Shown: one piece after another, positions 710 through 22,420 of the stretch
Layout: each line of letters starts with the position of its first letter
Position numbering within the stretch: the stretch's first letter is position 1
Made by a program: the position numbers and the translations under genes
Source of the DNA: a virus
Lineage: Duplodnaviria; Caudoviricetes
Direction: 5' to 3' (one strand)
Length of the DNA: 24,424 nt
IMG/VR virus record: IMGVR_UViG_3300021087_000075
Span: 1-24,424 of that record
The notes under the pieces: generated by a model
What the model was told of the DNA's origin: nothing
Seen by the model: the letters and a program-made list of their open reading frames with translations, nothing else
Databases searched by the model: none

Positions 710-782
710 AGTCCTACAGATTAGTTTCTATAAGACTATTTATATGTTTTAAAAACTTGGTATTAAAGATTATTCTGGCTTA
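710..782. repeat. Direct repeat copy A (gp13 promoter/leader plus 'KPE-stop' tail); partner at 22046-22118
   Basis: 710-756 vs 22046-22092 match at 46/47 nt; after a 13-nt divergent spacer in both copies, 770-782 and 22106-22118 are identical (ttattctggctta). Ungapped offset of 21,336 bp. Confidence 0.95.
737..744 (-). promoter_or_regulatory. T4-type late promoter TATAAATA for gp13
   Basis: Exact TATAAATA on the minus strand, intergenic, 35 nt upstream of the gp13 ATG. Confidence 0.88.
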
Positions 783-784
783 AG

Positions 785-2587
785 TTATCCTATTAAGTAT
801 CCGTTGCATGTAGTAAACGCTGCTGTTGCAGTGCCGTACATGGCATAAGTTTCAGCCGTGCTTGATCTAACAAAAATACTTATATAATCACTAGCCGCTA
901 AATTAAAGATGCCTGTAACAGCTGTTTGTTTCCAAGCACCTCCGGCGGATTGCATACTATTGGACTTAACACACGTGGATGTATTTCCATTGACAGATAG
1001 CCATATCTGAAAGTCACCACTAGTTCTTCCATGCATAATATTAGCATCAAATTTATATCTACCCGCAACAGGAGCTGTGAAGCGTCCAGTGCTTGTATTA
1101 AAACATCCACCAACATTATGCCCTCCATTGAGATAAGTAGTTGACCAAGAACCAGCCTCTACTTGACCTGCACCAGAAAGAGCTAAATGTGATGTTTTAT
1201 GAGCCATAAATGATGGTTGTCGAGGTTGAACTATTTGTCCTGTATCATGAATTCTCTGATTTTCACGATATCCATTTAAATCCCTATCATATCCTTGAGT
1301 AACAAAGTCTGCTCTCTGGCCATCAAATTGATGAGCTCCAGTAAACCACTCATAAGTTCCAGTATTATTTGCGTACCTAGTACCAGTATAACCATCAGTA
1401 TTAGCAGTATGCCTTAGCTGCATGGTAGGTTTATCTAAGAAGCCAGTAGGAGTATAAGCGTCATGGGTATCTTGATAAACTGTTAAACGCCCGTTGTATC
1501 CTCCAGTTGTTGTTGTGTTAATCCCCACACCATTATCATTAGAAATATATAAGTCGTCGCCAGCACTACTATCAGTGCCAGTAGTAAATCCTATACTTCC
1601 AGTAGTTTGATGGCTATAAATCTGCCCCCTGAGTGTAGTACCAGCGTAATTTCTAAATTGTATAAATGCGTAGTCGTCGGCGCTCCTGGCTCTTAATCTC
1701 AAAGCATTTGCTCCGCTACTTGCAACAATTTCTAACGGCACGCTCGGATCAGCTGTGCCAATACCAACATTGCCATCTTTATTAATTCTCATGGCTTCAG
1801 TTTCAAGTCCAGATGAATTGTGACCTACTGCAAATGCTAACTCTCCTGAGTTATGACCAGTTCCTGCATTAGTAGTGACAAATATCGAACCAGTAGCGCC
1901 ATATCCACTAGATGTAACTGTTGTTAATGATAGTTTAGCAATCTTAGTTCCATTTGCACTAGGAGCTGCGCCGCTGTAAATATTTTCAATTTCTAAACCT
2001 GCTTTGTATTCAAAAGAAAGAGGATTATTAGTTGAACCATTGTTATCATCTGTAAAACGTAATCGCATTGGACGATAATTAGAACCACTTTCTACTTCAA
2101 CTTTAATCGCCGCAGCTGAGCCTTCCATGCTAGACGTACCAATACCAACGTTGCCTAGTGAGTTGACGCGCATACGTTCAACAGGGGTTGTTGAACCTTC
2201 AGGAGCCGTAAAGAACCCTAGTCTTGTAGGAGTTTCAGTACCGTCCCAATTAGCATCTGCTTTAGCAGAAATATAAGCACCTATACCTGGGGTATATGAA
2301 GAACCATAACTAGCAGACCAGGATAGCCTGCCCATTTCTTCGTTTACATCTATCCAACCAGCACTTTCTACTTTACCTAGAGTAATACCGTCTGTATTAT
2401 GTCCAGCAACATTTTTATTTACATGTAACTGTGATATAGGCGAACTCGTCCCAATACCAAGTCTGCCATTACCGTCTAACGACAAGAAAGCAGCAGAATC
2501 GATGTTGTCGAGTAAGTCTGCGTCTACCTCACCTGTTGATGAGATATTGCTGCCAGCTAGGGCGATTCGTGATGCTTTAGTTGCCAT
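785..2587 (-). CDS. Tail fibre / receptor-binding-like protein with C-terminal C1q-like domain (600 aa)
   Basis: Repeated 'ERMR..S.GNVGIGT' shaft motifs; C-terminus QPSFMAH...FNTSTGRFTAPVAGRYKF...L...DYISIF...NGYLIG matches the C1q/TNF-like domain signature. Confidence 0.8.
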   Translation of the reverse strand: MATKASRIALAGSNISSTGEVDADLLDNIDSAAFLSLDGNGRLGIGTSSPISQLHVNKNVAGHNTDGITLGKVESAGWIDVNEEMGRLSWSASYGSSYTPGIGAYISAKADANWDGTETPTRLGFFTAPEGSTTPVERMRVNSLGNVGIGTSSMEGSAAAIKVEVESGSNYRPMRLRFTDDNNGSTNNPLSFEYKAGLEIENIYSGAAPSANGTKIAKLSLTTVTSSGYGATGSIFVTTNAGTGHNSGELAFAVGHNSSGLETEAMRINKDGNVGIGTADPSVPLEIVASSGANALRLRARSADDYAFIQFRNYAGTTLRGQIYSHQTTGSIGFTTGTDSSAGDDLYISNDNGVGINTTTTGGYNGRLTVYQDTHDAYTPTGFLDKPTMQLRHTANTDGYTGTRYANNTGTYEWFTGAHQFDGQRADFVTQGYDRDLNGYRENQRIHDTGQIVQPRQPSFMAHKTSHLALSGAGQVEAGSWSTTYLNGGHNVGGCFNTSTGRFTAPVAGRYKFDANIMHGRTSGDFQIWLSVNGNTSTCVKSNSMQSAGGAWKQTAVTGIFNLAASDYISIFVRSSTAETYAMYGTATAAFTTCNGYLIG

Positions 2588-2593
2588 TTGTTA

Positions 2594-5383
2594 TTATCCT
2601 ATTAAATGTCCGCTGAAGATAAATGTTCTTACGCCTAATGTTGTGCTCATATTTTTCCAACCTACCGATACATAATCTCCGGATGTTAATGGAATATTTG
2701 CAGAAAAACTAGGAGCTCCTATTTCTTTTTCCTGATCTAGTGTGCTTCCTCCCTGACCAATAACAAAAGGTGTTGATTGTGACATGTTTAGTCCACTATC
2801 ATATGTTCTCCAGTTAAACCTAGAACCGTTAACGTATAATCCCCATCCTACACTATTATCACCATCGCTACCCATTACATATAATGATAGGTTAAAAGTA
2901 ATATGATAAACACCAGTGACCGGTGCAGTAAATCTACCATTAGAGGTGTTATATATGCTTTTTCTGTTTATAAGAGTAGTATTTGCTATAAGTGTTCCTT
3001 CACTACCACTTAGCTGGTATATATTGCCTGCTGAAGAATTATTATTATATGCAGTAAATGTTGGATTTAGCGGTGCTCTTACTGCACCATTTCTATTAAT
3101 AGATAAAAGAACCTGATCATACGTAGAAGCATTATTATTATTATTGCCCTGACCTTTAATTAAAATAGCACCATCACCACCGTGATTAGTAGTTCCATCA
3201 TATTCAATAGCAGCATTTGCATCTGTAGCAGTAGCAGTAGCAGGCCCTTCCCAAAATTCTATTCTTTGACCTGCTGTTAAATTAGAGCTCAAATTACTTA
3301 AAATTACACGTGAATTATCTTTATGTAAGTGTAAATCACCTTCAGGCGCAGTTGTTTGTAGTCCTATTCTGCCGCTACTTGTGATAGTCATTCTTACTGG
3401 AATATCTCCGCCTGCTCCTACACTATCAGGTTTAGTGGCAAACATTAATCCACCTATGCTCTCACTACCATCACGTTTATGGAGTACTGCAGCACCAACG
3501 TTACTAGTATCAGTTGAATGTAGAAACCCTAATGCCACGCCACCGCCATTTGTATCAGAATTACGTTGTATTCGCATTTGTACTTCAGATACATCAACAC
3601 TCGTACCTGTTAATGCATTTGTATCTCCTCTGACATGAAGTTGTGATGTCGGATTTGGAACATTCCCAATTGCCACTTTACCGTCAGGTTTAATGTACAT
3701 TCTAATATCAGTGCCACCTGTCTGAAATTGCAGTTCGCCAGTAGCATCGCTTGCCGCAATGTGAAATGCACCATTTTGATTTGAAACAATCTCATTTGGA
3801 TCATGAAATAGACTATAAGTTCCGTCAGTAATGGTAAAGTATGAATTAGCAGTGTTTGCTGCACCGCCCATAGTTCCTGAACTTTTAACAACTAGTGGAT
3901 CAGTTGGGTTTGTTTCACCAATACCAACATTACCATTGGCTTTAACCACAAATTTCGGTGTGTATGTATCATTAGAATAATCAGTATCTTGAGATCCTAC
4001 GGCAATTTCAAATCCAGCATCTACTACTTCTTGAGCAGCTATTCTCCAATTATAGTGATTGCCTGTTGTTCCAAAATACATTTCAGGCGAACCGTTGTTT
4101 ATTGCCAAGTCACCGGTCAGTACACCACCAGCAAGCGGTAGGTATGAACTAACGCCAGTAGAAATCTGACTATTAACTTCTGCTTGTGTATAGACTTCTG
4201 ATTTTATATAGTATGCATCATTAGTTAGTAGCTCATATACCTGAATATCGACTGTATCACCGGAACCTAGGTTATATGTGAATGCAACAGATGTACCAGT
4301 TGTCGCAACAAAGTCACGTCCTGATCCGTATACTTGTTTAATACCGTTTACATATGCAACTACTCGTGTAGTAGAAGATGTGGTATCATAGAATAATGTT
4401 TGTTTAGCTTGACCTGTGCCTGAGCCCACACCCGTAGCAGTAAACACAACTCCTACAGTATTACCTGATGCACCAATAGCAGTAAAGTCTGTATTGCCTA
4501 CAGATGTAATAGTATACTTGTGACCGATAATAAATGCACCTGCAGTTAATTCATTATCATCAACTCCACTTACAGCACTTGTTGTACCTGTGAGTGTATA
4601 TGAATAGTTACGGAAAGTAGTATTTGCATCAGTTGCACCACCACCTCCACCGCCACCTGAGCCAGCAGGTACGGCATCGATAAATGCAGATCCTGTATAG
4701 ACTTTTAATTTTTGGTTTAATGAATCAAAGAAGAACGAACCTTGAATAGGTGTTCCAGAATATGCAGTGCCATATTGTACTTTAAGATTTGATAAGACAC
4801 CTGCAAGTGAACCACCGACTGTCATAGCAGAGTCAGCTACAGATCCAACGATATTACCAGAAGCATCAATTACTTCTGATCCATTAACTCCAATATTACC
4901 TGCAACATCTAATTTCTGTTGAGGTGAAGTATCAGAGATACCAACGCGATCAGCTGCAGTATCAACATAAAGAGTTCCGCCATCTATCGTAAGATTAGAA
5001 GCTCCTTGGATTGCTGCAATTGCTCGAGCATCGGTATAGAATAAGTTTGAAGATCCCTCGGTAATGTCATCAGAATCTACTACATCATTTGTAATCGTAA
5101 CAGTATTATCTGTTACTGCAAGACTAATATTAGTACCACCTGTAAATGTAACTGTTTCAGTTAGTCCTACAGTATCAGTAGTTGTGCCATCTGTAATATT
5201 AAATGATGTAGAAACAGTACCCCAACTAAGAGCACCACTACCATTTGTTTTTAGATATTGCCCAGCACTACCATCAGATGCAGGAAACGTTTGACCGGCT
5301 TGTGTCAGAGTACCTGTAGATGTAATTGCTTGGCCTACTACTAAGCCGTTTTTGACTAGAAAGTCATGATTTGTGTTCGACAT
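2594..5383 (-). CDS. Large tail fibre-like protein with C-terminal C1q-like domain (929 aa)
   Basis: N-terminus 'DFLVKNGL', 'DGSAGQYLKTNGSGALSW', 'EGSSNLFYTDAR', poly-Gly linker, GNVGIG repeats, C-terminal YNTSNGRFTAPVTGVYHITF...FSGHLIG. Own late promoter. Confidence 0.8.
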   Translation of the reverse strand: MSNTNHDFLVKNGLVVGQAITSTGTLTQAGQTFPASDGSAGQYLKTNGSGALSWGTVSTSFNITDGTTTDTVGLTETVTFTGGTNISLAVTDNTVTITNDVVDSDDITEGSSNLFYTDARAIAAIQGASNLTIDGGTLYVDTAADRVGISDTSPQQKLDVAGNIGVNGSEVIDASGNIVGSVADSAMTVGGSLAGVLSNLKVQYGTAYSGTPIQGSFFFDSLNQKLKVYTGSAFIDAVPAGSGGGGGGGATDANTTFRNYSYTLTGTTSAVSGVDDNELTAGAFIIGHKYTITSVGNTDFTAIGASGNTVGVVFTATGVGSGTGQAKQTLFYDTTSSTTRVVAYVNGIKQVYGSGRDFVATTGTSVAFTYNLGSGDTVDIQVYELLTNDAYYIKSEVYTQAEVNSQISTGVSSYLPLAGGVLTGDLAINNGSPEMYFGTTGNHYNWRIAAQEVVDAGFEIAVGSQDTDYSNDTYTPKFVVKANGNVGIGETNPTDPLVVKSSGTMGGAANTANSYFTITDGTYSLFHDPNEIVSNQNGAFHIAASDATGELQFQTGGTDIRMYIKPDGKVAIGNVPNPTSQLHVRGDTNALTGTSVDVSEVQMRIQRNSDTNGGGVALGFLHSTDTSNVGAAVLHKRDGSESIGGLMFATKPDSVGAGGDIPVRMTITSSGRIGLQTTAPEGDLHLHKDNSRVILSNLSSNLTAGQRIEFWEGPATATATDANAAIEYDGTTNHGGDGAILIKGQGNNNNNASTYDQVLLSINRNGAVRAPLNPTFTAYNNNSSAGNIYQLSGSEGTLIANTTLINRKSIYNTSNGRFTAPVTGVYHITFNLSLYVMGSDGDNSVGWGLYVNGSRFNWRTYDSGLNMSQSTPFVIGQGGSTLDQEKEIGAPSFSANIPLTSGDYVSVGWKNMSTTLGVRTFIFSGHLIG

Positions 5384-5400: not shown

Positions 5401-5410
5401 GTGTTTACTT

Positions 5411-5418
5411 TATTTATA
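5411..5418 (-). promoter_or_regulatory. T4-type late promoter TATAAATA
   Basis: Exact consensus, intergenic, upstream of ATG 5383. Confidence 0.85.
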
Positions 5419-5423
5419 ATAGT

Positions 5424-5471: not shown

Positions 5472-5473
5472 TA

Positions 5474-5836
5474 TTACCAAGGGTTGTCTGGAGCGCTTAG
5501 CTCAGGTTCGTTACTTGGAATAAAATCAACGAAGGTTTTTTGTCCAACATCCCCAGATTCTTCAATTTCGGATGCGAGCTCAGCAGCAACTTTTTCCTCT
5601 ATCTGAGTAACAAAACTAGATCCTAGTTGACCTTTTACCCAACCAATAACTTGAGCTTCTGTTAAGCTTGCAAATGGAGTAAAGGTTCCTGCATTATATT
5701 CAAACTCAGCAATCGCTTCATAGTAAGCAGAAGCTGTGCCGCTTGTAGTGGTATATCTGTAAGTAGCTTGTTTCACTATGTTATTTACATCACCTGACGT
5801 TATTGTTCTTAAATTTTCTGAAATGGTCCAACTCAT
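5474..5836 (-). CDS. Small conserved phage protein, probable fibre partner/chaperone (about 120 aa)
   Basis: Likely start is MSWTISENL at 5836 (GAGGA upstream, 1 nt after the previous stop), not 5887. The motif 'FTPFASLTEAQVIGWVK' recalls small proteins found beside fibre genes in aquatic phages. Confidence 0.65.
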   Translation of the reverse strand: MSWTISENLRTITSGDVNNIVKQATYRYTTTSGTASAYYEAIAEFEYNAGTFTPFASLTEAQVIGWVKGQLGSSFVTQIEEKVAAELASEIEESGDVGQKTFVDFIPSNEPELSAPDNPW

Positions 5837-5837
5837 A

Positions 5838-7526
5838 TTAAATTCCTCTTCTAACTCTGCTGATGCCATTATAATGACCAACTTCAACGTATGTTACCGA
5901 AGTACCAAAATTAGTTGCGGCTGTTGATTTTACCTTCAACTCAACGGTACCAGTTGAACTGTTAGCGTTTGCTTCTGTAACACTTATAGTAAAGTCGCTA
6001 GTGTTTCCAAAAGAATTAACTAAAGCGATACCCGAAATGCCTTCATTGAATGCTTGAAACCTGTATAAATACTCTGCAGCTATTCGACTTTCTAATCCAT
6101 TTCGCCCTGCAGCGCATTTTATTTTAATAAATCCACAAGCCCAAAGACTTTGACTGGTCGTTAGTTGAAAAATAACACCAGACCTGTAAGAGTTATCTGT
6201 CCCAACTGCAAGCATAACTTGAGAGGCGTCACTAGAACTGGAAAAATTAAGTCCAAGACCTCCCTTGATTTTAACAGCTCCATCTCCAGTACCGTCATCA
6301 CGAAGGATTCTCATACTCTCAGAACCACCAACTTGAAACTGCATAGTTCTTGAATCGTGTGCGTAGTTAATATAACCATCATAAGAATCAGCACCACTTG
6401 TAGTATCACCAAAGTGAATTGTATTAGCACCATTAGTAGGGTTAGCTATCATTTGTATCAGTGCTTGACCATCAGTTACCTTACCAATAGTTATATCACT
6501 AAATGTTGACATACCTACCGCAGTCACGTTACCTGATAGGTAGAGGTTTTTGAAGCGGGAATTTGTAGCACCTAAATCCATAGTATTATCAGAGTTATCA
6601 CCAGCATCATTAGTAGGAACTACTGCTCCGTTGTACCAACGCATACCATTACCTGAGTTTCTTGCAATGTATGGGTCGCCATTATTAACACCAATAAAGC
6701 CTTTATTTGAGTCGTCCCTAGCTAATGTAATAGCCACACCATCACTACTTTTACGGTTAAAGTAACCTCCAGTTGCATTTTCTGAAGCTACCCATATTTG
6801 TCCTTGTGAGCCAAAGACAGTAACGCCTTTAGTATTATTGTAGCCACCTGCACCAAACTTAGCTGCACCGCCATCAGACATATCAAGACGAAGTGCTTCA
6901 ATACCAACACCACCATCATTACCTACAAAAACAATATCTTTATCTTGTACTCTTGACTCTAATTTAAAATCGCTACTAGCGTTTTCTATACGCCCAAAAT
7001 GTGTACCGCCATCTTTAAAGTCAACTAAACCAGTATTATCAGCATCTAAGATAATTGCTCCTGCAACGTCTAATGTAAGGTCGCCCAATAAAGATAGTAA
7101 AGAAACTTTATCAGCGTCAGTCGTTATTGAACCCACATGATTAGAACCATTTCTAAATTTCATCATGTTACGACCTGTTCCAGCCGCTCGTCTAATTTGT
7201 ATTTCTCCGTCTGCGCCTATGTAAGCTGTATTATCACCAGCACCAAGAGACGTTGATGGGTTAGCTCCTATTACAACATTACCTGACGAGTCAATAACAG
7301 CAGCAGTTGCCGATGCATTGTCATCAATACCAGTAGAAGCAAAGTTACTAATAACTCCACCATCAACTGAGTTGCCTGATATTTGATTCGCAGCAAAAGT
7401 CAATGTCTTGCTTGACAAGTTCATATCAGTATGCAGCTTAGCATGAGTTACTGATAAGTCAGCAATCTCAGTTGAGTCGATAGTTGCATCTGATATAAAA
7501 TCTGATAAATTTCTTGCCTTAGACAT
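5838..7526 (-). CDS. Tail fibre-like protein (562 aa)
   Basis: N-terminus MSKARNLSD, 'VTHAKLHTDMNLSSKT', 'STGIDDNA', 'DLGATNSRFKNLYLSG', 'GYINYAHDSRTMQF' modules shared with other fibres here; beta-rich C-terminal tip of unknown fold. Confidence 0.72.
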   Translation of the reverse strand: MSKARNLSDFISDATIDSTEIADLSVTHAKLHTDMNLSSKTLTFAANQISGNSVDGGVISNFASTGIDDNASATAAVIDSSGNVVIGANPSTSLGAGDNTAYIGADGEIQIRRAAGTGRNMMKFRNGSNHVGSITTDADKVSLLSLLGDLTLDVAGAIILDADNTGLVDFKDGGTHFGRIENASSDFKLESRVQDKDIVFVGNDGGVGIEALRLDMSDGGAAKFGAGGYNNTKGVTVFGSQGQIWVASENATGGYFNRKSSDGVAITLARDDSNKGFIGVNNGDPYIARNSGNGMRWYNGAVVPTNDAGDNSDNTMDLGATNSRFKNLYLSGNVTAVGMSTFSDITIGKVTDGQALIQMIANPTNGANTIHFGDTTSGADSYDGYINYAHDSRTMQFQVGGSESMRILRDDGTGDGAVKIKGGLGLNFSSSSDASQVMLAVGTDNSYRSGVIFQLTTSQSLWACGFIKIKCAAGRNGLESRIAAEYLYRFQAFNEGISGIALVNSFGNTSDFTISVTEANANSSTGTVELKVKSTAATNFGTSVTYVEVGHYNGISRVRRGI

Positions 7527-7552: not shown

Positions 7553-7560
7553 TATTTATA
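7553..7560 (-). promoter_or_regulatory. T4-type late promoter TATAAATA
   Basis: Exact consensus 1 nt after the stop of 7562..7945 and upstream of ATG 7526. Confidence 0.85.
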
Positions 7561-7561: not shown

Positions 7562-7945
7562 TTACGGTTTAGTTGGCCACGTAACATCGTCTAAAGAAGT
7601 TGCAGTAGATGTGATATCTCGTAATGCTTGACGATAAGCACGTTGTGCATTTGTCATAGTACGATCTGAACTTGCCCACCAGTCAGTGACAGCGATCAAG
7701 CGATCACGTTCTTCTCTGAGTAGACGCATTGGTTCAGCAGCAATGAGTTCGTCACGTTTTGCTTCGATCTCTTCCCATGTTGCTCCCCAGTTTGCTTCGT
7801 CATTTGTTTCGATTGCAGATCCATTTGCATCTGTGCCGATTACTCGTGCAAACATATGACGAAATGATGATTTATCAGTTGGTTCGCCACGAAGTACCCA
7901 CTCCGTAATACCCAACTCTGATAGTGCTGTTGCGATTGTTGTCAT
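7562..7945 (-). CDS. Phage tail (fibre) assembly chaperone, Tfa / Phage_tail_APC-like (127 aa)
   Basis: C-terminal LREERDRLIAVTDWW...YRQALRDIT...VTWPTKP is the characteristic motif; AAGGA RBS. Confidence 0.8.
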   Translation of the reverse strand: MTTIATALSELGITEWVLRGEPTDKSSFRHMFARVIGTDANGSAIETNDEANWGATWEEIEAKRDELIAAEPMRLLREERDRLIAVTDWWASSDRTMTNAQRAYRQALRDITSTATSLDDVTWPTKP

Positions 7946-7960
7946 TTTATTTTCCTTATT

Positions 7961-8437
7961 TTATCCTGCGATTTCCATTACTGTAATTCTTGATCCACCA
8001 TATTGATTTATACGCATCAGTCCCGAAGCCGCAAAATGGTTCACTTGAACTTTATAAGTAATAGGACTTGTAGTTGCAGGGGAATCTAATTTAGTCAAAG
8101 AAACACATAGAGCATTATTATCTTGAAACCCAGCCGCGCCTTGTTGTGTCAAAATTGAAGTTGATCCTCTCAAAATATTAACACCAATAAGTCCAGTACC
8201 GTTAACAAAAGTTTGTAAATTTGTAATTACATATACTTTACTTGATGAAGACTTTGGAGTTATTGTTACAGACAACCCAGTATCAGTATAAGATTGAGAT
8301 GTTATATCTGTTTGTGTATTGTATTCTCCTTCAACAACCTGTAACACTGTACCTGTTGTATTAATCCCTAAGTCAGCCGCCGTTGGTGCAGCACCTGCTG
8401 CAGTCTGTATCTGATCGACTTTAATTATACTGGTCAT
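7961..8437 (-). CDS. Short fibre-tip-like structural protein, paralogue 3 (158 aa)
   Basis: G.VLQVV...TGLSVTITPKSSSSKV...LDSPATTSPITYKVQ...VMEIAG; paralogous to the two upstream genes; ATGA overlap. Confidence 0.7.
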   Translation of the reverse strand: MTSIIKVDQIQTAAGAAPTAADLGINTTGTVLQVVEGEYNTQTDITSQSYTDTGLSVTITPKSSSSKVYVITNLQTFVNGTGLIGVNILRGSTSILTQQGAAGFQDNNALCVSLTKLDSPATTSPITYKVQVNHFAASGLMRINQYGGSRITVMEIAG

Positions 8438-8919
8438 TGTGCGATCTCCATTGCTACAAAGTTTATGTCACCTCTATCAGGACCATTATATTGATAAGTT
8501 CCACCATCGGTTTTTGCATATGTTTGATAAGTTGTAGCAGATGTTGTACTAGGTGAGTCCAGTACCATCATTCCGTGAGGAGTAATAGTAAATCCAGTTG
8601 TTCCTACTGTATAAAAACTTTGTAATCCTCTAGTACCACTTCCAATATTAGTACTGCCTCTATAAATAGTAACTGAACCCATAGTATTACCTTGCGGCAA
8701 ATACTGACCACCGCCTAAGACATATAACAATACTTGTGAGGTAGAAAACTTAGGTGTAATTGCTACTGTATGTCCTGTTGCTGTAAACGAACTGCTAGTA
8801 ATATTAGAATTTACCTGACCCCAAGTACTCTGCACAACTTGTAATATATGCCCAGGAATATGCACACCATTACCGCTTGTCTTTTCGACGAGATTATCAA
8901 CATATAAGGTACTAGTCAT
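8434..8919 (-). CDS. Short fibre-tip-like structural protein, paralogue 2 (161 aa)
   Basis: GHILQVV...ITPKFSTSQV...LDSPSTTSATTYQ...MEIAQ; ATGA overlaps on both sides. Confidence 0.7.
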   Translation of the reverse strand: MTSTLYVDNLVEKTSGNGVHIPGHILQVVQSTWGQVNSNITSSSFTATGHTVAITPKFSTSQVLLYVLGGGQYLPQGNTMGSVTIYRGSTNIGSGTRGLQSFYTVGTTGFTITPHGMMVLDSPSTTSATTYQTYAKTDGGTYQYNGPDRGDINFVAMEIAQ

Positions 8920-9479
8920 TGTGCGATCTCCATTACTTCCATCACAGCGTCTGCTGTCCCTCCATTGCCATTATTTATTCTCCACGAGTTATTTGATCCG
9001 CCATATAGTCTTCCTTGAAGTTGATAGGTAATCGCAGATGTTGTATTAGGTTCATCTATGTAGCTTAGAGTAAAAGGAGGATAAAGATCAGTAGTAGCCC
9101 AACCCATATTATAATAGTTCATCCAACTGCCATTAGTAAGTTCAGTGCTACCTCTCATAAGTCTATGATCCTGCGCAGATTGATTTGATCCATTAGCATT
9201 ATTAAGGACAGTTTTAGCCCAAATACAAATAACAATTCTTGAATTAGTATGTTTTGGTGTAATTGTAACAGTAAACCCTGATGCATCTGTATAGGAAGCA
9301 GAGCTAAAGGTTGTTTCTGCTGAAGGTTTAACTGTTTTTAATTGAATTATTTGATCAGCGCTAGGTACAAGCGTTGCTGCACTAGCATCTAGTGTCTGAC
9401 CACTAGGTATTAATACTGTGTCAGCATTAGCTCCACTTGTAGGACCTCGTAATGTTTGAACTGTTAATTCACTTGCCAT
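8916..9479 (-). CDS. Short fibre-tip-like structural protein, paralogue 1 (187 aa)
   Basis: QIIQ...VTITPKHTNSRI...IDEPNTTSAITYQ...MEIAQ; AGGA RBS. Confidence 0.7.
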   Translation of the reverse strand: MASELTVQTLRGPTSGANADTVLIPSGQTLDASAATLVPSADQIIQLKTVKPSAETTFSSASYTDASGFTVTITPKHTNSRIVICIWAKTVLNNANGSNQSAQDHRLMRGSTELTNGSWMNYYNMGWATTDLYPPFTLSYIDEPNTTSAITYQLQGRLYGGSNNSWRINNGNGGTADAVMEVMEIAQ

Positions 9480-9488
9480 ATTCCTACC

Positions 9489-9701
9489 TTAAACTATAGT
9501 TAATGTACCATTGACCGTTATATCACCCGTAGCGGTAAATGGACCAATGATCATTGCGTTGTCTGTTGATGCAATAGTAAAGTCATCTGCACTACTATTT
9601 GCATTTTGATATACTTTTGCAGTCACGGCAGTTGTAGCACCAAAGTCAATGTCTTCACTGCTTGCTGTGATTGCGCCGTTTGAATTTAATACTAATGCCA
9701 T
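9489..9701 (-). CDS. Small structural/adaptor-like protein (about 70 aa)
   Basis: Likely start MALVLNSNG at 9701 (AGGA upstream). C-terminus VYQNAN...FTI...NAMIIGPFT...VNGTLTIV resembles the C-terminus of 11439..11837. Confidence 0.65.
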   Translation of the reverse strand: MALVLNSNGAITASSEDIDFGATTAVTAKVYQNANSSADDFTIASTDNAMIIGPFTATGDITVNGTLTIV

Positions 9702-9706
9702 TTTTT

Positions 9707-10666: not shown

Positions 10667-10670
10667 ATTA

Positions 10671-11837: not shown

Positions 11838-11847
11838 TGTTTATTCC

Positions 11848-14341: not shown

Positions 14342-14360
14342 TGAGTTCCCTATCCCTCAA
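14341..14360 (-). promoter_or_regulatory. Putative translational-operator stem-loop over the RBS (UUGAG-GGAUAGGGAA-CUCAA[UG])
   Basis: 5-bp stem ending in the A of the AUG; 16/18 identity with 5383-5400. Confidence 0.5.
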
Positions 14361-14371
14361 GTTCTTTTAGT

Positions 14372-14379
14372 TATTTATA
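14372..14379 (-). promoter_or_regulatory. T4-type late promoter TATAAATA
   Basis: Exact consensus, intergenic, upstream of ATG 14341. Confidence 0.85.
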
Positions 14380-14393
14380 ATACTTATTCTTCA

Positions 14394-16262
14394 CTACCAT
14401 GTAGTTATATTAATACTTCCCCCGCCACGGGCTCCTTGAACAACAAAAGAACCATCACCAGAAGAACCAGATGCGTTAAAGTCCCATCTATAATTGCCAC
14501 CAGATACACTAAAACTATAATTTACAGTACCATCACTTGTTCTTGAAGCTATAGTAGTTGAGTATCCAGCATTATTATTGTTATTAATATACCCTTCCCA
14601 ATATACTAAACAACTACCGCCGTTTGTACGTTGAGCCATAATTCTTACATGAGCTGATTCATAGTTACCTAGCTGTATTTCTACTCTACGATTATAGTTG
14701 CCAATTCCAAAGGTTCCATGTCTAAGTTCCATTCCTTGAATTGACATTTCTCTTGAGACTATAGATATTTTACCGCCTTGGCTTCCGTCTATCTTCAATG
14801 CTGAAGTTACAGCACCACCAGAATTATTAACATCAAAGTGCATATCAGTAGTATTAACAGCACCTTGAGTTTTAACTCGTATTCCTGCTTGTCCATCTTG
14901 TGTGTTATTAGAGAAAGTAATTTCACCTATTTGCTGGTCGCTATTACTGTCTAATCTTTTTATAGCAATACCTTGGCCACCACCTGACGCAGGAGTAGTA
15001 ATAGTCATCGCTTGATTATCTGCTTGCTGTAATGCAGCACCAGCGTAACCTATTTCAAAAGATCCATTTGACTTTAGTCTTAATCGTTCTGTATCACTAG
15101 TACCAGTTGAAACTGTTAAGAATCCTGTTACTATTCTAAGATTTGAACTTGCGCTTGTCGCATGGTACAAGCTTTTAATTGTTTGTACAGTATGGCCAGA
15201 ATTATTATGCGAAATTAAAAGTCCAGCACCACCACCAATTTTTACATCACCGTTACCTGTACTTCCTGCTTGTACGTGTAACAGGTGAGTAGGACTTATC
15301 CCAATACCAACGTTGCCCGAATCTAAGAATGTAACTAAAGTTGCGTTTGCTTGACTTTTTATTACTAAACCTCTAGATGGCTCACCACTACCTCGATAAT
15401 AACCAAAATCCATATAGCGAACATCTTCGCCTTCAGTTCCATATCTTGTTAAAGCATATTGACTCCACGCTAAACTAGAATTTCGTATACTTTGTATAGG
15501 ATTCGATCCTGCATCGTTTACTATATTTAATGGTCTTGCAGGAGCATCTGTACCAATACCAACATTGCCTGAGTTGTCGATGCGCATACGTTCTGATGAG
15601 CCAGTAGCAAATCGTATATCTGATGCTCGAAACCCAAGCGGTCTTAATGCTGAACCTGCTGAATTAACAGATTGCATTGCAAAGGTTCCTGTACCAACCT
15701 CACTAATAGCATTAGAGGTATACATTTTTGCATCTGTACCAGCAGTTATATCAAGTTGAACAGCATTGACTGTACCTGATAAGTGAAGGGCTTTGAACCT
15801 TGCACCGGTTGTACCAATATTAATTCCACCATCTCTAGTACTGTTGGTTGATATATTATGTGGAACAAGGTTGTCAGAACCATCCTGAAAACGTAAGGCT
15901 ACATCGCCTGTACCAATCGTTAGATCACTACCTACAGTCCCAACAATACCTACTGCTGCACCATCTTTAAGAAACTTTATAATATCACCATCTGAGTTCA
16001 GGCGATTTAACAAAAGCGTATCACTATCAGTTCTAGCAATACGAATACTATCTGGGTGTATATTTACACCATCGTTTCCACTACCAGAATTATTAGCAAC
16101 ATTAGTATCAACAGTACCTACTAATACATTACCTGTTGTATTCAATGTACTCAGCGTAGGAAGCGTAACCGTTTTGGTGCTAAGATCCATATCGGTGTGC
16201 AATTTATCATGTGTAACCGCTAAGTCGGGAATACCGCTTGTCTGGATCTTAGTAATGGACAT
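14394..16262 (-). CDS. Tail fibre-like protein (622 aa)
   Basis: 'VTHDKLHTDMDLSTKT' N-terminal module, 'NRLNSDG...FLKDG', 'ARFKALHLSG', several ERMRIDNSGNVGIG repeats; beta-rich tip of unknown fold. Confidence 0.75.
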   Translation of the reverse strand: MSITKIQTSGIPDLAVTHDKLHTDMDLSTKTVTLPTLSTLNTTGNVLVGTVDTNVANNSGSGNDGVNIHPDSIRIARTDSDTLLLNRLNSDGDIIKFLKDGAAVGIVGTVGSDLTIGTGDVALRFQDGSDNLVPHNISTNSTRDGGINIGTTGARFKALHLSGTVNAVQLDITAGTDAKMYTSNAISEVGTGTFAMQSVNSAGSALRPLGFRASDIRFATGSSERMRIDNSGNVGIGTDAPARPLNIVNDAGSNPIQSIRNSSLAWSQYALTRYGTEGEDVRYMDFGYYRGSGEPSRGLVIKSQANATLVTFLDSGNVGIGISPTHLLHVQAGSTGNGDVKIGGGAGLLISHNNSGHTVQTIKSLYHATSASSNLRIVTGFLTVSTGTSDTERLRLKSNGSFEIGYAGAALQQADNQAMTITTPASGGGQGIAIKRLDSNSDQQIGEITFSNNTQDGQAGIRVKTQGAVNTTDMHFDVNNSGGAVTSALKIDGSQGGKISIVSREMSIQGMELRHGTFGIGNYNRRVEIQLGNYESAHVRIMAQRTNGGSCLVYWEGYINNNNNAGYSTTIASRTSDGTVNYSFSVSGGNYRWDFNASGSSGDGSFVVQGARGGGSINITTW

Positions 16263-16272
16263 TAGTTATTTC

Positions 16273-16545
16273 CTATTCTGGTGTGTCTTCAGCTGCTGCT
16301 GCATTACGTGCTTCTGCTGTTTGTACAACATTTAATTCAAATGCTTGTGCTACCTGAGCTTCTTTACCTACAGCCATAGCGATTTCATTATCGTTACAGT
16401 GAGTCATAAGCATACCACAAATCTCATCGATTGCGATACGTGCTCGGTTTGTTACTGCGTTATCAGCCCAGTCTTGTGGACTAAGGGCAGCGTACTGCAT
16501 AGCTTTAAGCTCTGTTGCAGTTACTTCAATTGTTATTGTTGCCAT
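16273..16545 (-). CDS. Small helical phage protein, probable fibre partner (90 aa)
   Basis: AGGAG RBS, own late promoter; motif 'ALSPQDWADNAVTNRARIAIDEI'. Function unknown. Confidence 0.7.
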   Translation of the reverse strand: MATITIEVTATELKAMQYAALSPQDWADNAVTNRARIAIDEICGMLMTHCNDNEIAMAVGKEAQVAQAFELNVVQTAEARNAAAAEDTPE

Positions 16546-16579
16546 TTTAAATTCTCCTAAGTGACAAGATTAATAGTGT

Positions 16580-16587
16580 TATTTATA
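16580..16587 (-). promoter_or_regulatory. T4-type late promoter TATAAATA
   Basis: Exact consensus, intergenic, upstream of ATG 16545. Confidence 0.85.
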
Positions 16588-16591
16588 TAAG

Positions 16592-16765
16592 TTATTCTGC
16601 ATCTGCAATGGTTAGAGTACCAGCTTCAACTTGCTTGAGTATCTCTGCGTAGTGCCTGTTGGCCGAGTTTAGCGGGACAAACATCTCTTGTCCGTCTATT
16701 GTTGCTTTGACTGAAGAGTTGTTACCACCCATATCAGTAGTGTATTGCGCTGTTGTAATGTTCAT
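16592..16765 (-). CDS. Small conserved phage protein, probable partner of the upstream protein (about 57 aa)
   Basis: Likely start MNITTAQY at 16765 (GGAG upstream); motif 'VPLNSANRHYAEILKQVEAGTLTIADAE'. Confidence 0.68.
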   Translation of the reverse strand: MNITTAQYTTDMGGNNSSVKATIDGQEMFVPLNSANRHYAEILKQVEAGTLTIADAE

Positions 16766-16779
16766 ATTATCTCCCATGA

Positions 16780-17955
16780 TTATAACTCCGCATCAAAATT
16801 TATAGACCCACCTGAAACTGCCCCAAACCAGCCCATCAAGGCATTTGTATGATCTGTTCCTGGAACAAGATTAACTCTAGCAGATGTCCCATCTGGATGC
16901 GCGCTTAAAGAAACTGAAGAAACTGTATCGTATACAATACCTGGTTTATGTAACCTATCCATGCCTGTGTTAGACATAGAAGGTTCGGTTCTCATTGTAG
17001 ACATGCTGTAAACTGTTCCAGAATACTCATTATGAGTCGATCTGTTTCTAATCAGTGCTACATTTCCGTTGGTATCTTTACATTGGATAATTTGATAATA
17101 GCGCTGACACAACGCTAGTTCTTCACCGTATGATCGGTGCTCAAAGGGTGTAGCGACTTTGCCAACCTCAAACTGTACCCCTGTAATATGCCAATAATCA
17201 TTAGTAGTTTTACCCCAATGTGCAGTGTGCCCTCCAGACCAATTTCCAGTTGTGTAGGAAGACCAATTAGGAGCCTCACTCACAGTATAACTAGACCCAC
17301 TACTTAAATTAAAGTAAAATGCTAATCCATCACTATTGCTATTAAGAATGCCTGTATTAGTATCTGGTGGTATGACTAATGTAACATACTGCCAAACACC
17401 TGCGTGTTCAACTGTGTATATTGGTGCTACCACCCTGGCAGATCCAAATGTTTTATATATACTAACTGTATAGTCACCCGGCACATTTGTTCTTACCCAA
17501 AAAGATAAAGTTGTATGCTTAGCGCCAGATGTTCCATAACCAAGATGCTGAAGATCACTACCTTCTATTTTGTAAAACAAGCCAGATACTAATTCTGTTG
17601 ATCCTAATGAAGTGTCTGCTGTAGTTGCTATAATGTGGTGATAGTGAGGAAATTCTGCTAAGCCGCTATTGTTGTCTTGCCTTACTGTATAAGTACCTGA
17701 ATTGGCTTCATAGAAAGCCATTCTATCAGTAGCATAATAACCATTACTTGCAACACCTGTAGCACTAGTTCCACGCTGTGCAATCCGCATATCACCATTA
17801 ATAATCATATTCCTACGCCCAGCACTAATCAGGTTAAACTGTTCCTGTGGTGTCTCTGCAGCTAACATTGCTTGACCAGCTGTACCGCTTGGCTTATCAA
17901 GCTCACTAATCTTTTCTCTTACATTTATTTCTGGTTTACTTACTTTAACTACCAT
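16780..17955 (-). CDS. Structural protein with putative carbohydrate-binding (galactose-binding-like) domain (391 aa)
   Basis: 'RNMIINGDMRIAQRGT...TDR...TLSFWVR...W...ITGVQFEVGKVATPFEHRSYGEELALCQRYY' pattern typical of phage tail carbohydrate-binding-like proteins. Confidence 0.68.
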   Translation of the reverse strand: MVVKVSKPEINVREKISELDKPSGTAGQAMLAAETPQEQFNLISAGRRNMIINGDMRIAQRGTSATGVASNGYYATDRMAFYEANSGTYTVRQDNNSGLAEFPHYHHIIATTADTSLGSTELVSGLFYKIEGSDLQHLGYGTSGAKHTTLSFWVRTNVPGDYTVSIYKTFGSARVVAPIYTVEHAGVWQYVTLVIPPDTNTGILNSNSDGLAFYFNLSSGSSYTVSEAPNWSSYTTGNWSGGHTAHWGKTTNDYWHITGVQFEVGKVATPFEHRSYGEELALCQRYYQIIQCKDTNGNVALIRNRSTHNEYSGTVYSMSTMRTEPSMSNTGMDRLHKPGIVYDTVSSVSLSAHPDGTSARVNLVPGTDHTNALMGWFGAVSGGSINFDAEL

Positions 17956-17958
17956 CGT

Positions 17959-20900
17959 TTAATCCTCTGCTACCATTCCGTTTGATGCACTGATAGCTGC
18001 GCCTACTGCATCTGTTGTATTATCTATTCGTCTTAGTCCTTGGAAGACTGAACGTCCTGCACTTGTACCTACATGAAGCAATTCTGTATCATCGTCATAT
18101 GCTAATGCTGTGACTGCATCTGAAGAACCATAAAGAGTAGCCTTTGCATTCTCTTGGAATAAGAACTTCTCGTCTTCGTATATCTTTTTAATTTGTTCTT
18201 GAGATAAAGCCGTGTGTGATAAACGGAATAGAGATAGGCTTCCTCTCCAATAGGTTGTAGTTTGAGTAGGCTCTGTCCTTCTACCTAATCTAATAACATT
18301 ACCGGAACGTGTTAAATTTGCAGTATGTGTATAGCTACCTGCTGTTAAAATTCCATTAATAGATGTAGAAACTGTTCCACCTTTTCTTTGATGAGTTACA
18401 TGTATCCAATTATTTAAAGGAACAGATGATTGAATATAATTCCAGTTACCGCCACTTTCTCTTGTATATGTTCTTAATCCTTGCCCAGCAACATATAATG
18501 CTAAAATAGCCTGGTCTTGATCTGAGGCATACCCATAATGATAGGCAGCCGCCGTAGTATCGCTTGGAATATACATCCAGGTCTGAATACAAAAGTCAGC
18601 ACTAAAATCTAAACTAGAATTATAAGGTTGTTGTAAATAATTACCGTCACCAAACCCAGCATAACTTACAATATCTCTATCGCTTCCACCTTTACTCTTA
18701 GTCACAGTGCCGACTACTTCTACTGGATGACAATAAACGGTTCTATTATAATCGCACTCTTGAATACTATACCCTGTTACAGTACCAGTACTCCATGTAT
18801 AAAAAGTCCACGATGGGAAGTTTTTTATATAAACAGTACTACTGATTGGTGATCCAGACGTACCACCAGCTTGGATATTAAGATTAGCTTGTCCTACTCC
18901 AGGCGCAGTAGTATCTCCTGTATAAACATAAACTCCATCAGTTGGATTACCGTATCCTGGCCATTGTCCGTCGATATCCCCATAACCTGTAATAGTTACT
19001 TTATAAGTCTTTTTAGGATTAAGTGTAATAGAACCTAAATTACCAGTTGCTGGAGTATAAGGATTTAGATTAGTGTCAGATACATTAGTGTCGTCGGTAT
19101 CGGATAAGGTAGAGAGTTTGATGTTACCGCTCATCCAGCCTGTGTTATAGTCAGAAGTTATATAGGCTACTGAGTTGCTGGGCGAAGATAAACCTCCGTT
19201 TATGTTGAAAACATTTAAACCATATGTATCTGCTGTGGCAGCATTATTGTTATCTAAAGAAATTGCTCTATTTGCTAATCCGTATTGTTGATCACCATGA
19301 GGATTATTACTAGGACCGTTAGGACCAGGGAAGGCGATACCATTACTTCTAAAATAATTTAAATACGGCCAGCCTGAAGGGTGAGCCCCTGAGGCTGCTG
19401 TTAAATACGTAATAACAAAGTAACTATAATTATTTCTAGTTACTATAAGGTACCCATCCTTTGTAAAATCCACAGTTGCGCTGTATGTGGTTGCATCAGT
19501 GGTTACTTTATTGACGACAATACCGTCATCCTTAATAATACTTACTCCACCATTTGTTGCAACAGCAATAGTCGGCACAGGCAATCCTGTAGCACTATCA
19601 ATCGGGGCGTTGGGTAGCACGGTCATTGCTACATCGTTGATATTCTGTGATACAATAGCTAGAAGATCATAATCTCCCTTATAACTCCTATAGCTGTTTC
19701 TAGTAGATATTGGACCTGTGTAAATAGACCCTGTGAAACCACTTCCTACAGTACGATAACACCGTGATAATTCAGAAATAAAGTTAACAGTAAATGCACC
19801 TTCTGGAGAGCTACTGTCATTCATACCAAAGCACATAGTTCCATTTATACACCCTACGCTTGTTACACTACCACTACCTGTAATAATATTACTTGAACTA
19901 CCAATAGCACCAACAGCATTAAATACCATCCACATAGGCAAATCAGGATCATCACCATCATAGATCGTAACCTGTGAACTCTCAGCCACAATCACAGCAA
20001 CCGCTGGAAACTCTTTACGAGCACCACGAGTAGCAGTGTTTAGTGTTTCATTATACCAAGATGTATGCTGAGTACGTTTACGCCATGCACCACCATCTGA
20101 ATCTTTACGAGTGTCATATATGAATACATCAACTGCAGTATCAGAAATATCTTTAGCAACAGCAGCGAGATCCATATCACCAGTTACGTTACCCGTTACA
20201 TTACCTGTAACTGCACCAGTATGCGTGCCTGTAGTATCGCCGGTTAAATCACCTGTAATAGTACCATCAACCGTTAAACTTGTACCATTTAATAGTTGTA
20301 GAGAATCGGATCTCCATCGGCCAGTAATAACATTTGATCCAGCCTTCTTATGAGCAAACTCAATGATGCCATCTTCTGTTCCGTCACTAGCATCTAAAAT
20401 TTTACCAGTGATTTTTGCAAAGACTGTGTTTTGGTCTGCATCATTATCAGCAGTAAATTTAATTTGACCAATATAGTTTGCATCGGCGCCGGTGTTATCT
20501 CTTCGTAATTCAAATTCTGGGGCTGCGGAACTACCTGAGTCTGTTGATGTAAGAGTTGCATTACCTGTTACGTCAATACCTGTTGATGTTGTGGATAGTT
20601 TGGGGGAGTTGTCGTGATAAAGTGTTACTGCACCATTAGATGTACCATTTAATATATTTTCACCAGATGCAGTCTGGATACGAACATCTGTGCCTTGAAG
20701 GTATAAAGAGCCTGTGCCGCCTTCTTTTACATAAGAGCCAGTATTGTCGTGGTAAATTTGTAGATCGCTATCATCACCAAAGATAGCTTTATTATTATCT
20801 GCAAAAGTAATGTTATTGCCTGAACCACCGATCTGGATAGTACCGTTTACAATATCACCGTCATAGTTAATGTAGCGAGAGTCTGATGCTGCTTTAGAAT

Positions 20901-21186
20901 AAGATGCATCATTTGCAATCTCATCTTGAGTCATGATTATTAGTTTATCACCAGAAGCCGCACCTGATGTTAATGTAAGTACATCTCCACTGATAGTATA
21001 ATCATCGGTAATAATAAGCCTGACGCCGTTCAGATAAACATCGTTGTCATTTGCTTGAAGAAGATCTAGAGTTAAGCCATTCTCATCAGTACCGCTAAAT
21101 GCAGTCTGATTTGCTGTAGAAGTAAACTCATAGACCGCGCGACGACCCTGCCTTATACTGCCAGGTCCATTACCGATATATGCCAT
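17959..21186 (-). CDS. Large virion/fibre protein with LamG (concanavalin A-like) domain near the C-terminus (1075 aa)
   Basis: MAYIGN.P N-terminus, beta-sandwich repeat, DLQIYHD module, (G.VT)n repeats, and DFCIQTW...NNWIHVTHQRKGG...INGIL...IRLG...WRGSLSLFRLSHTALSQEQIKKIY (LamG-like, approx. 18170-18640). Confidence 0.72.
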   Translation of the reverse strand: MAYIGNGPGSIRQGRRAVYEFTSTANQTAFSGTDENGLTLDLLQANDNDVYLNGVRLIITDDYTISGDVLTLTSGAASGDKLIIMTQDEIANDASYSKAASDSRYINYDGDIVNGTIQIGGSGNNITFADNNKAIFGDDSDLQIYHDNTGSYVKEGGTGSLYLQGTDVRIQTASGENILNGTSNGAVTLYHDNSPKLSTTSTGIDVTGNATLTSTDSGSSAAPEFELRRDNTGADANYIGQIKFTADNDADQNTVFAKITGKILDASDGTEDGIIEFAHKKAGSNVITGRWRSDSLQLLNGTSLTVDGTITGDLTGDTTGTHTGAVTGNVTGNVTGDMDLAAVAKDISDTAVDVFIYDTRKDSDGGAWRKRTQHTSWYNETLNTATRGARKEFPAVAVIVAESSQVTIYDGDDPDLPMWMVFNAVGAIGSSSNIITGSGSVTSVGCINGTMCFGMNDSSSPEGAFTVNFISELSRCYRTVGSGFTGSIYTGPISTRNSYRSYKGDYDLLAIVSQNINDVAMTVLPNAPIDSATGLPVPTIAVATNGGVSIIKDDGIVVNKVTTDATTYSATVDFTKDGYLIVTRNNYSYFVITYLTAASGAHPSGWPYLNYFRSNGIAFPGPNGPSNNPHGDQQYGLANRAISLDNNNAATADTYGLNVFNINGGLSSPSNSVAYITSDYNTGWMSGNIKLSTLSDTDDTNVSDTNLNPYTPATGNLGSITLNPKKTYKVTITGYGDIDGQWPGYGNPTDGVYVYTGDTTAPGVGQANLNIQAGGTSGSPISSTVYIKNFPSWTFYTWSTGTVTGYSIQECDYNRTVYCHPVEVVGTVTKSKGGSDRDIVSYAGFGDGNYLQQPYNSSLDFSADFCIQTWMYIPSDTTAAAYHYGYASDQDQAILALYVAGQGLRTYTRESGGNWNYIQSSVPLNNWIHVTHQRKGGTVSTSINGILTAGSYTHTANLTRSGNVIRLGRRTEPTQTTTYWRGSLSLFRLSHTALSQEQIKKIYEDEKFLFQENAKATLYGSSDAVTALAYDDDTELLHVGTSAGRSVFQGLRRIDNTTDAVGAAISASNGMVAED

Positions 21187-21187
21187 A

Positions 21188-21523
21188 TTATGCTTGCTCC
21201 ATAATGCTCAATGTTGTATCAATTGAATTCGCTGTATCAGATTTAACCTTAAGAACATCAGAAGTTTCAAGGATTAATTTGTTTCCAGACATAACTTCTA
21301 TCGAAGATCCAGTTGGTATTGGAACTCCTTTTAAGAAGTTAATATTGTCTCCATCATTATTTTCAATGAGTACTGTTGCGTAAATTGTGTTTGTTGTTAT
21401 ATTAGCCAGTGTGATACCAAGCACAACTGTTGTAGTCGCGGCAGGTGCGGTATAAACCGTCATCGCAGCGTTTGCAGCTGTACTAGAACCATCAAAGGTT
21501 TTTAATTTAAATGTATTAGCCAT
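21188..21523 (-). CDS. Small all-beta virion structural protein (111 aa)
   Basis: MANTFK...VYTAPAATTTVVLG...LAN...IPTGSS...GNKLILETSDVLKV...SIMEQA; a recurrent aquatic-phage family; AGGA RBS inside the upstream gene end. Confidence 0.68.
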   Translation of the reverse strand: MANTFKLKTFDGSSTAANAAMTVYTAPAATTTVVLGITLANITTNTIYATVLIENNDGDNINFLKGVPIPTGSSIEVMSGNKLILETSDVLKVKSDTANSIDTTLSIMEQA

Positions 21524-21526
21524 ATC

Positions 21527-22039
21527 TTATCCTAGTGCAATTGCCAAAGCTGTAGCATCATCTATTGATGCTTTGGTAGCTAGACTATTTGTTATAGTTG
21601 TTGAGAAGTTAGCATCGTCATTGATAGCGGCTGCTAATTCGTTTAGTGTATCTAATGCCGCAGGTGCACTATCAACTAAACCTGTAATTTGTGTCTGAAC
21701 ATATGATTGTGTTGCCCAGTTGTTGGCACCTAAGTAAGTTCCAACTCTTGCATCAGTGTAGTATAGATTACTTGATCCTTCTGCGACTGTATCTGTATTA
21801 CCTTGAGTAAAGGTGATTACACCGCCTGAATAACCAAGTTGAGATCCTGATACTGATATAGCACCTTGTGATCTGGCATTTGTAAAGTATAGATTAGTCG
21901 AGCCTTCACCAAGCTGATCTGTATCATCGCCTGTGGTAAGAAAGTTACCATCACCGTCAATCGCTGCTACGTCACTACCTTCGTTATATGTTAACTTCCG
22001 GGATAACTGCGCGAGTTCTGTTGCTTTAGTTGATGCCAT
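21527..22039 (-). CDS. Short fibre-shaft / adaptor protein (170 aa)
   Basis: Two 'EGS.NLY.T.AR' repeats and 'LVDSAPAALDTLNELAAAINDDANFSTTIT' (motif known from P2 gpH-type tail fibres); ends ALAIALG. Confidence 0.72.
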   Translation of the reverse strand: MASTKATELAQLSRKLTYNEGSDVAAIDGDGNFLTTGDDTDQLGEGSTNLYFTNARSQGAISVSGSQLGYSGGVITFTQGNTDTVAEGSSNLYYTDARVGTYLGANNWATQSYVQTQITGLVDSAPAALDTLNELAAAINDDANFSTTITNSLATKASIDDATALAIALG

Positions 22040-22045
22040 AAAAAA

Positions 22046-22073
22046 AGTCCTACAGATTAGTTTCTATAGGACT
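22046..22073 (-). promoter_or_regulatory. 11-bp RNA hairpin burying the AGGA RBS, followed by a U-run (possible terminator/attenuator)
   Basis: AGUCCUAUAGA-AACUAA-UCUGUAGGACU then U-run then AUG (22039); equivalent hairpin at 710-737. Confidence 0.7.
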
Positions 22074-22080
22074 ATTTATA
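22073..22080 (-). promoter_or_regulatory. T4-type late promoter TATAAATA
   Basis: Exact consensus, upstream of ATG 22039. Confidence 0.87.
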
Positions 22081-22105
22081 TGTTTTAAAAACCTCAGTTT
22101 AGATT

Positions 22106-22420
22106 TTATTCTGGCTTAGTTGGCCATACAACATCTTCTAAGGATGTGTATGTATTAGTAATATCTCTTAAGGCTTGTCTATACGCCCTTTGCTCATCGG
22201 TTGCTGTACGATCTGGCATCATCCACCAATCAGTTTCAGACAGTTTTTCATCTCTAAGCCTACGAAGACCTGATAAACTAGCTTCTGCAATTTCTTCGTC
22301 AGTTATAATTACTGGTTCTTGATTCGGGTCTACTTCCTCTAGCGCCATAAGTTCGTCATAATTACTGCTTATATATTCTATTGTGCCGTCTTCACGTTCT
22401 GTTCTTATAAAATTTGTCAT
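22106..22420 (-). CDS. Phage tail (fibre) assembly chaperone, Tfa / Phage_tail_APC-like (104 aa)
   Basis: LRRLRDEKLSETDWW...YRQALRDIT...VVWPTKPE; AAGGAG RBS. Confidence 0.82.
   Translation of the reverse strand: MTNFIRTEREDGTIEYISSNYDELMALEEVDPNQEPVIITDEEIAEASLSGLRRLRDEKLSETDWWMMPDRTATDEQRAYRQALRDITNTYTSLEDVVWPTKPE

Follow-up and report, generated by a model that had tools for sequence, protein, structure and literature searches.

The window, by which we mean the whole 24,424-nt stretch of DNA analysed, belongs to an uncultured T4-like phage whose gp13 is less than 60% identical to that of every isolate (2,047 matching isolate records); the runs holding the phage are labelled marine or seawater. 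All genes of the window are carried on the minus strand, in the order S74 fibre, partner, chaperone ending WPTKPE, cassette copy B, 21 ORFs, cassette copy A and gp13 (Table 1); the initial annotation had counted 18 genes between the copies. The pair of genes that follows copy B (170 and 111 aa) is conserved, with its order unchanged in relatives. A 44-nt repeat encoding a GNVGIGT-type fibre motif is present in seven copies, which are likely internal crossover points.

The two copies form a direct repeat. As first described, the cores are identical at 46 of 47 positions and a distal segment (770-782 and 22106-22118) at 13 of 13, both with an offset of 21,336; a repeat search extends the pair to 80 nt at 88%. 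Core matches with up to three mismatches number two in the window vs none in 100 shuffles. Misassembly was rejected as an explanation: the single mismatch leaves only two 23-nt exact halves in the core, and other contigs span junction A (L091, L110) and junction B (L201, L212, L258). A contig from X1, possibly the window's own run, crosses copy B without difference.

At copy B the distal 13 nt are indeed the end of a real Phage_tail_APC chaperone gene (..WPTKPE-stop), and at copy A they are an orphan that belongs to no gene and trails the stop codon of the 600-aa fibre gene in frame (stop-L-K-P-E-stop). A PTKPE or PTKP chaperone directly upstream of the gp13 leader, the order that had been proposed as ancestral, is found in the relatives L006/L107, L002 and L255, and the orphan KPE is therefore read as the scar of a chaperone gene.

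Table 1 Features of the window and their positions.
Feature	Position	Strand	Details
gp13 neck/head-tail adaptor gene, runs off the window	3..701	-	PHROG 211, E 2e-42
Copy A cassette and flank	703..782	-	core 710-756; late promoter TATAAATA 737-744
Copy A predicted 15-bp hairpin	706-741	-	covers SD AGGA 712-715; folding z-score -6.2
Orphan KPE-stop, chaperone gene-end remnant	770..782	-	in frame after fibre stop codon
Last fibre slot MATKASR.., 600 aa, C1q-like tip	785..2587	-	
Fibre slot MSNTNH.., 929 aa, C1q-like tip	2594..5383	-	plain late promoter 5411-5418
Fibre slot MSKARN.. (562 aa) and DUF7936 partner	5474..7526	-	plain late promoter 7553-7560
Chaperone (Phage_tail_APC), three short paralogous fibre-like genes, two C1q-like genes, small partners	7562..12129	-	
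Fibre slots MSNYIG.. (716 aa) and MSITKI.. (622 aa)	12191..16262	-	plain late promoter 14372-14379
Partners, 391-aa fibre-like gene, 1075-aa LamG fibre (MAYIGN..)	16273..21186	-	plain late promoter 16580-16587
First pair after copy B: 170-aa MASTKA..AIALG gene and 111-aa gene	21188..22039	-	
Copy B cassette and flank	22039..22118	-	core 22046-22092; TATAAATA 22073-22080; SD 22048-22051
Copy B 11-bp hairpin, then T run (terminator-like)	22046-22073	-	folding z-score -5.7
Tail assembly chaperone ending WPTKPE-stop	22106..22420	-	Phage_tail_APC, PF16778, E 4e-15
157-aa partner and S74-chaperone fibre; itself a variable slot	22430..24423	-	MSDTKIK.. start seen in L201
44-nt GNVGIGT-type repeat copies	1755-1798, 2136-2179, 10377-10420, 12948-12991, 15550-15593, 23822-23865, 24167-24210		
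Pieces skipped or replaced in X3, X15	8449-8848, 9707-10954, 16592-17912, 22100-22901		

Late promoter and hairpin of the cassette

The initial annotation did not describe the core as a late promoter combined with an RNA hairpin. On the minus strand the core consists, in order, of an AT-rich stretch, the late promoter TATAAATA, the hairpin, a T run and the ATG; the 5' arm of the hairpin overlaps the promoter and the 3' arm contains the SD sequence AGGA, just before the ATG. Both copies fold better than expected (z-scores in Table 1), and the fold weakens from -16.7 to -2.9 kcal/mol when the 5' end is trimmed to the late start, the position of which was assumed from T4 spacing. In a simple terminator scan copy B passed and copy A failed. 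A search for sigma70 sites found none in copy B and only one at chance level near copy A. A gp55-type late sigma factor (PHROG 234, E 5e-52) is encoded, outside the window, on G002, a contig whose gp13 is 100% identical to that of the window. Four other TATAAATA promoters in the island are not accompanied by such a hairpin, and the cassette had no match in Rfam.

The length of the loop varies from 4 to 13 nt between fixed arms, the mismatches in the arms are G-U pairs, and the stem persists in unrelated gp13 leaders, for which the consensus fold yielded only four pairs, three of them changed on both sides. Because of the variable loop, the G-U pairs and the two-sided changes, the sequences point to a stem that would act as RNA and not as a DNA site for a recombinase. 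The hairpin is dispensable, since it is missing from L003, whose gp13 is 99% identical, and strong folding (-9 kcal/mol or better) is seen in only 10 of the 47 distinct gp13 leaders that have TATAAATA. A second pairing of promoter and terminator, with a different late promoter and a strong hairpin (-19.8 kcal/mol), was observed at L001:6989-7038, upstream of a gene that follows a tail-tube-like gene.

Distribution and exchange of the cassette among relatives

Viral contigs contained 33 loci with the cassette pattern, of which 31 are before gp13, one before the copy-B gene and one unrelated. The 88 loci in metagenome contigs, a redundant set that includes two from the window's own contig, lie before gp13 (45), the B gene (27), other fibre starts (12; 6 + 3 + 2 + 1) and a PAAR-like gene (one), with the contig ending there in three; four metagenome records were searched in part. 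The pattern scans fix 27 bases, so that conservation of the core is partly by construction. The gene after the cassette in L234 (98 aa), which by its motif looks like a PAAR spike tip, would place the cassette in the baseplate region also. Isolated phages gave no real match (one weak hit, E 0.2) and prokaryote genomes gave none, hence no clue to the host. The pattern for the start of the B gene matched only the contig of L088, matches to the protein of the 170-aa gene were for the most part distant fibres, and a search with the gene upstream of the slot before copy B returned two distant loci and was uninformative.

Two copies are present in the window and on the L279/L280 contig. Since the 30-68 kb contigs (G001, G002, G003 and G007) hold one copy each, the cassette seems to be confined to the tail region and not to occur genome-wide. 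A generic late element occurring throughout the genome, which had been named as an alternative, was rejected in that form on these single copies and on the absence of the hairpin from the other late promoters of the window; what stands of it is that the cassette is reused within the tail region. In a quick tree of gp13 the cassette falls in three separate groups, with four changes of which at least two are forced, and near-identical cores precede gp13 genes that are only about 60% alike (L248 vs the window). From L272:5050 on, a MATKASR-like start, broken off by a stop after 19 codons, comes after the cassette and gives way to unrelated ORFs, either a truncated slot or a chimeric contig. The distant T4-like L134, L010 and L018 have no cassette, and in these one gene separates a MATVIR-like gene from gp13; within the family the size of the fibre region thus ranges between about 1.5 kb and more than 24 kb.

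The region is built as a series of slots in which the starts are conserved and the tips and partners exchangeable. What the last fibre gene has in common with close strains is limited to its first 117-152 nt, and in each of the runs X2 and X4 at least four alternative upstream alleles join the leader within positions 765-786. The slot preceding copy B shows variation of the same kind, which places copy B inside the variable region. Orphan KPE remnants precede both copy A (e.g. L091, L106, L237) and copy B (e.g. L193, L202, L238) and are therefore replacement scars. These findings do not support the initial proposal that one duplication was followed by accumulation of genes between the copies: the variable region runs on upstream of copy B, the scars are not limited to copy A, and the cassette recurs before several other fibre genes and the PAAR-like gene.

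Within the window's lineage the majority of crossovers lie upstream of the core, in the KPE end, and the flanks of A and B show no mixing. Crossover scars do not share one position and spread across about 40 nt of upstream sequence, and many island junctions have no relation to the cassette. The leader flanks look layered, with older chaperone ends or a foreign lineage flank between stop codon and promoter, like successive scars (L221, about 45-25 nt upstream of the promoter; L269; window 22093-22105). Contigs from X3 and X15 skip or replace pieces of 0.4-1.3 kb (Table 1), small gains and losses that are not tied to the core, and the last slot of L095 runs on into sequence 91% like window positions 12955-13189. 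Enzyme-like genes are found among the fibre partners of L104 (5963-9397), L261 and L205; they start MKIIILGGG, MRIVIAGGG or MKFVIVGAG and are presumably Rossmann-type.

Between close relatives the cassette is linked to gene gain, loss or replacement. A module of 3,074 nt is common to L241 and L244 (86% alike); it runs up to the B leader in the former and up to the gp13 leader in the latter. Five pairings, three of them assigned by likeness, link B leaders to particular gp13 leaders as their best matches (0.89-0.97); in a separate test of co-occurrence, leader likeness within assemblies was 0.746 vs 0.667 when permuted (p = 0.002, n = 11 B loci with a gp13 locus). Lineage-specific AT-rich flanks are common to A and B in L195/L267. 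The pairing of A and B in one genome is seen in the window only, is suggested for L195/L267 by a shared scaffold name and is otherwise a matter of co-occurrence.

L227 and L266, which are 96.8% alike over 2,566 nt, contain what is normally the last slot, a gp13-type leader and a gp13-like ATG GCA GCT, followed by the B gene. The usual B letters are present in 21 of 23 distinct B leaders; the L227/L266 leader has both A letters. L255 and L096, whose gp13 leader matches that of L227/L266, are without the last three slots, and judged by their sequences the four would fit a permuted island, the two parts of which lie on separate contigs. The predicted recombination between leaders thus left a product of two leader types in L227/L266; the removal of the whole block that had been predicted with it was not found. 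On the L279/L280 contig 3,736 bp separate the first copy, which precedes a MATTKAF fibre, from the second, which precedes gp13. L296, whose gp13 is identical to that of L279/L280 over 295 nt, has one copy and is without the 3.7-kb cassette, which replacement explains as well as excision because the upstream fibre allele of L296 also differs.

Fate of the block and alternative explanations

In a collapsed genome, gp13 is expected to be preceded by the B flank or by the slot that normally precedes copy B (MSDTKIK/MADTKIK). Among 51 distinct gp13-type loci, 14 reach a recognisable slot, and in none of these is it the slot of copy B; the other 37, most being short, show no recognisable slot. Hybrids joining the B flank to gp13 were likewise absent from the 35 loci carrying the window's exact core, which have A flank, T and gp13 (16), B flank, C and the B gene (14), B flank without downstream sequence (one), gp13 with a foreign flank (one) or an unrelated gp13 (three). 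The depth of copy B matches that of gp13 in four runs (490/450 in X2, 110/112 in X3, 714/690 in X4 and 14.9/13.3 in X6); in three of the four the listed contig holds both B flank and B gene, and in X4 the B flank sits on a piece outside the contigs listed. In X1 the depths are 7.6-11.8 within the island and 10.7-11.4 past copy B. No collapsed junction was present among the contig matches listed; contigs drop rare variants, so rare circles could still occur. The raw reads of X21 gave 15 partial reads, and the phage is absent from that run.

In relatives with the chaperone before gp13, fibre slots of the island are still present upstream in every case where the contig is long enough, and the starts and order of the slots persist across phages with gp13 about 60-80% alike. 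The empty-site form of an excisable island was absent from the relatives and contigs examined, and the view that the two copies bound an excisable unit is not supported. A viable 21-kb excision is unlikely.

From the observed anatomy, positions and junctions we propose, with a probability of about 0.65, that the repeat is an insulating restart cassette and doubles as a crossover anchor, one of several, at which fibre modules are swapped or rearranged. In the predicted regulatory steps, read-through transcripts from upstream would fold the hairpin, hiding AGGA, and with the U run may terminate; transcripts begun at TATAAATA would miss most of the 5' arm and be translated. Gp13 and the first island genes would be insulated from whatever module arrives upstream. 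As the recombination route we infer that fibre tip, partner and chaperone are replaced together by a double crossover, the first at the conserved start of the fibre or at a GNVGIGT-type repeat within it and the second in the KPE end of the chaperone or in the cassette, which would leave KPE scars. Occasional crossovers between non-equivalent copies would homogenise the copies within a lineage, and may also reorder the island and add or drop single cassettes. The whole block is retained, probably because its conserved slots are required for virion assembly. A bolder version, which we hold only tentatively, has the late-promoter cassette turning the fibre region of these marine myophages into a recombinase-free, integron-like array. 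Crossovers between its copies would pop out, re-insert, duplicate or circularly permute fibre cassettes of any size between 3.7 kb and the full 21 kb, with the late-promoter cassette itself spreading between co-infecting phages only about 60% alike.

The cassette could instead be purely regulatory and kept alike by selection, e.g. by a phage protein binding the stem or loop, in which case the recombination nearby would only reflect a conserved intergenic stretch at the end of a variable slot. The near-identical cores before dissimilar gp13 genes, the unmixed A and B flanks of the window's lineage and the hairpins of T4 genes e, soc, 49 and I-TevI, a purely regulatory precedent (PMC3014915), are in keeping with this explanation; we consider it rather unlikely given the lineage-specific flanks common to A and B in L195/L267, the dispensability of the hairpin in L003 and, in L227/L266, chimeric start codons that cannot arise by selection on a promoter. 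Excision of the 21.3-kb block as a unit, leaving a viable phage with chaperone, leader and gp13, draws on the direct orientation and near-identity of the copies, on the reciprocal end-to-start junction in L227/L266, on the distance of only about 1.5 kb from the MATVIR-like gene to gp13 in the cassette-free L134, and on the circles that PeSL pairs are reported to excise in RB49 and phi1 in about 1 in 1e5 virions (PMC2839356). Against it stand the 0 of 14 informative gp13 loci and 0 of 35 exact-core loci, the matching depths in X2, X3, X4 and X6 and the persistence of slot starts and order, which together make it very improbable. We give least credence to the palindrome being a DNA site at which a site-specific recombinase or cruciform-cutting nuclease targets exchange. 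Inverted arms of 11-15 bp do surround a short spacer, their sequence is unusually fixed across distant phages, and Arbiol et al. leave such a possibility open for PeSLs; the spacer, however, varies in length, the G-U mismatches suit RNA and not DNA, the scars are scattered upstream, and no recombinase is present among the proteins of the window.

Relation to known systems

The promoter-stem-loop cassettes PeSL and PmSL are described from the T4-like phages RB49, phi1, PST and nt-1 (PMC2839356, PMC4122927). Like these, the cassette is intergenic and combines an AT-rich stretch, a promoter, a stem-loop, an SD sequence and a start codon; it is also repeated, has variable genes next to it and is associated with genes being gained, lost or replaced. 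The differences are that it has the late promoter TATAAATA whereas PeSL and PmSL use a sigma70, early or middle promoter, that its predicted stem covers the SD, and that it lies in the structural fibre/neck region, where groupings of PeSLs are said to be less frequent. It is present in one or two copies per contig, counted on contigs only, as against about 50 PeSLs reported per genome, and it is known from sequence alone whereas circles and activities are reported for PeSLs. The cassette may work like a PeSL, as its late-promoter analogue, and is not filed as one because its promoter is not an early promoter. The PeSL papers report early and middle versions, with groupings less frequent in structural regions (PMC2839356, PMC4122927), and no late-promoter version was found in the part of the literature searched. 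For a large deletion that arose spontaneously in S-PM2, a link to PeSLs was considered unlikely (PMC4503421).

Ribosome-binding-site-sequestering hairpins are reported for the T4 late genes e, soc, 49 and I-TevI (PMC3014915). The cassette shares with them a late promoter in the 5' arm and the SD in the 3' arm, an arrangement that late transcripts would escape. The T4 hairpins are gene-specific, whereas here one sequence precedes gp13, several fibre genes and the PAAR-like gene and carries a terminator-like U run.

The island region is the known host recognition cluster (HRC) of pelagi- and cyanomyophages, which lies between VrlC and the neck genes and has reported mean sizes of 44.6 and 34.2 kb (PMC7029224). 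Both are directly upstream of the neck genes, fibre-rich and hypervariable. The 21-kb stretch is only part of such a region, in a phage with no close isolate by gp13, and a 1753-aa PHROG 358 gene is found upstream in G001, beyond the window. The available text on the HRC describes no repeated regulatory anchor (PMC7029224).

The interpretation given in the initial annotation is partly supported, and a flanking direct repeat need not signal an excisable island. How T4-like phages reshuffle the host-recognition region without upsetting the expression of essential neck and tail genes is the question on which a late-promoter version of these cassettes bears: its named junctions give fibre exchange in an uncultured marine clade a concrete anchor that can be tested.
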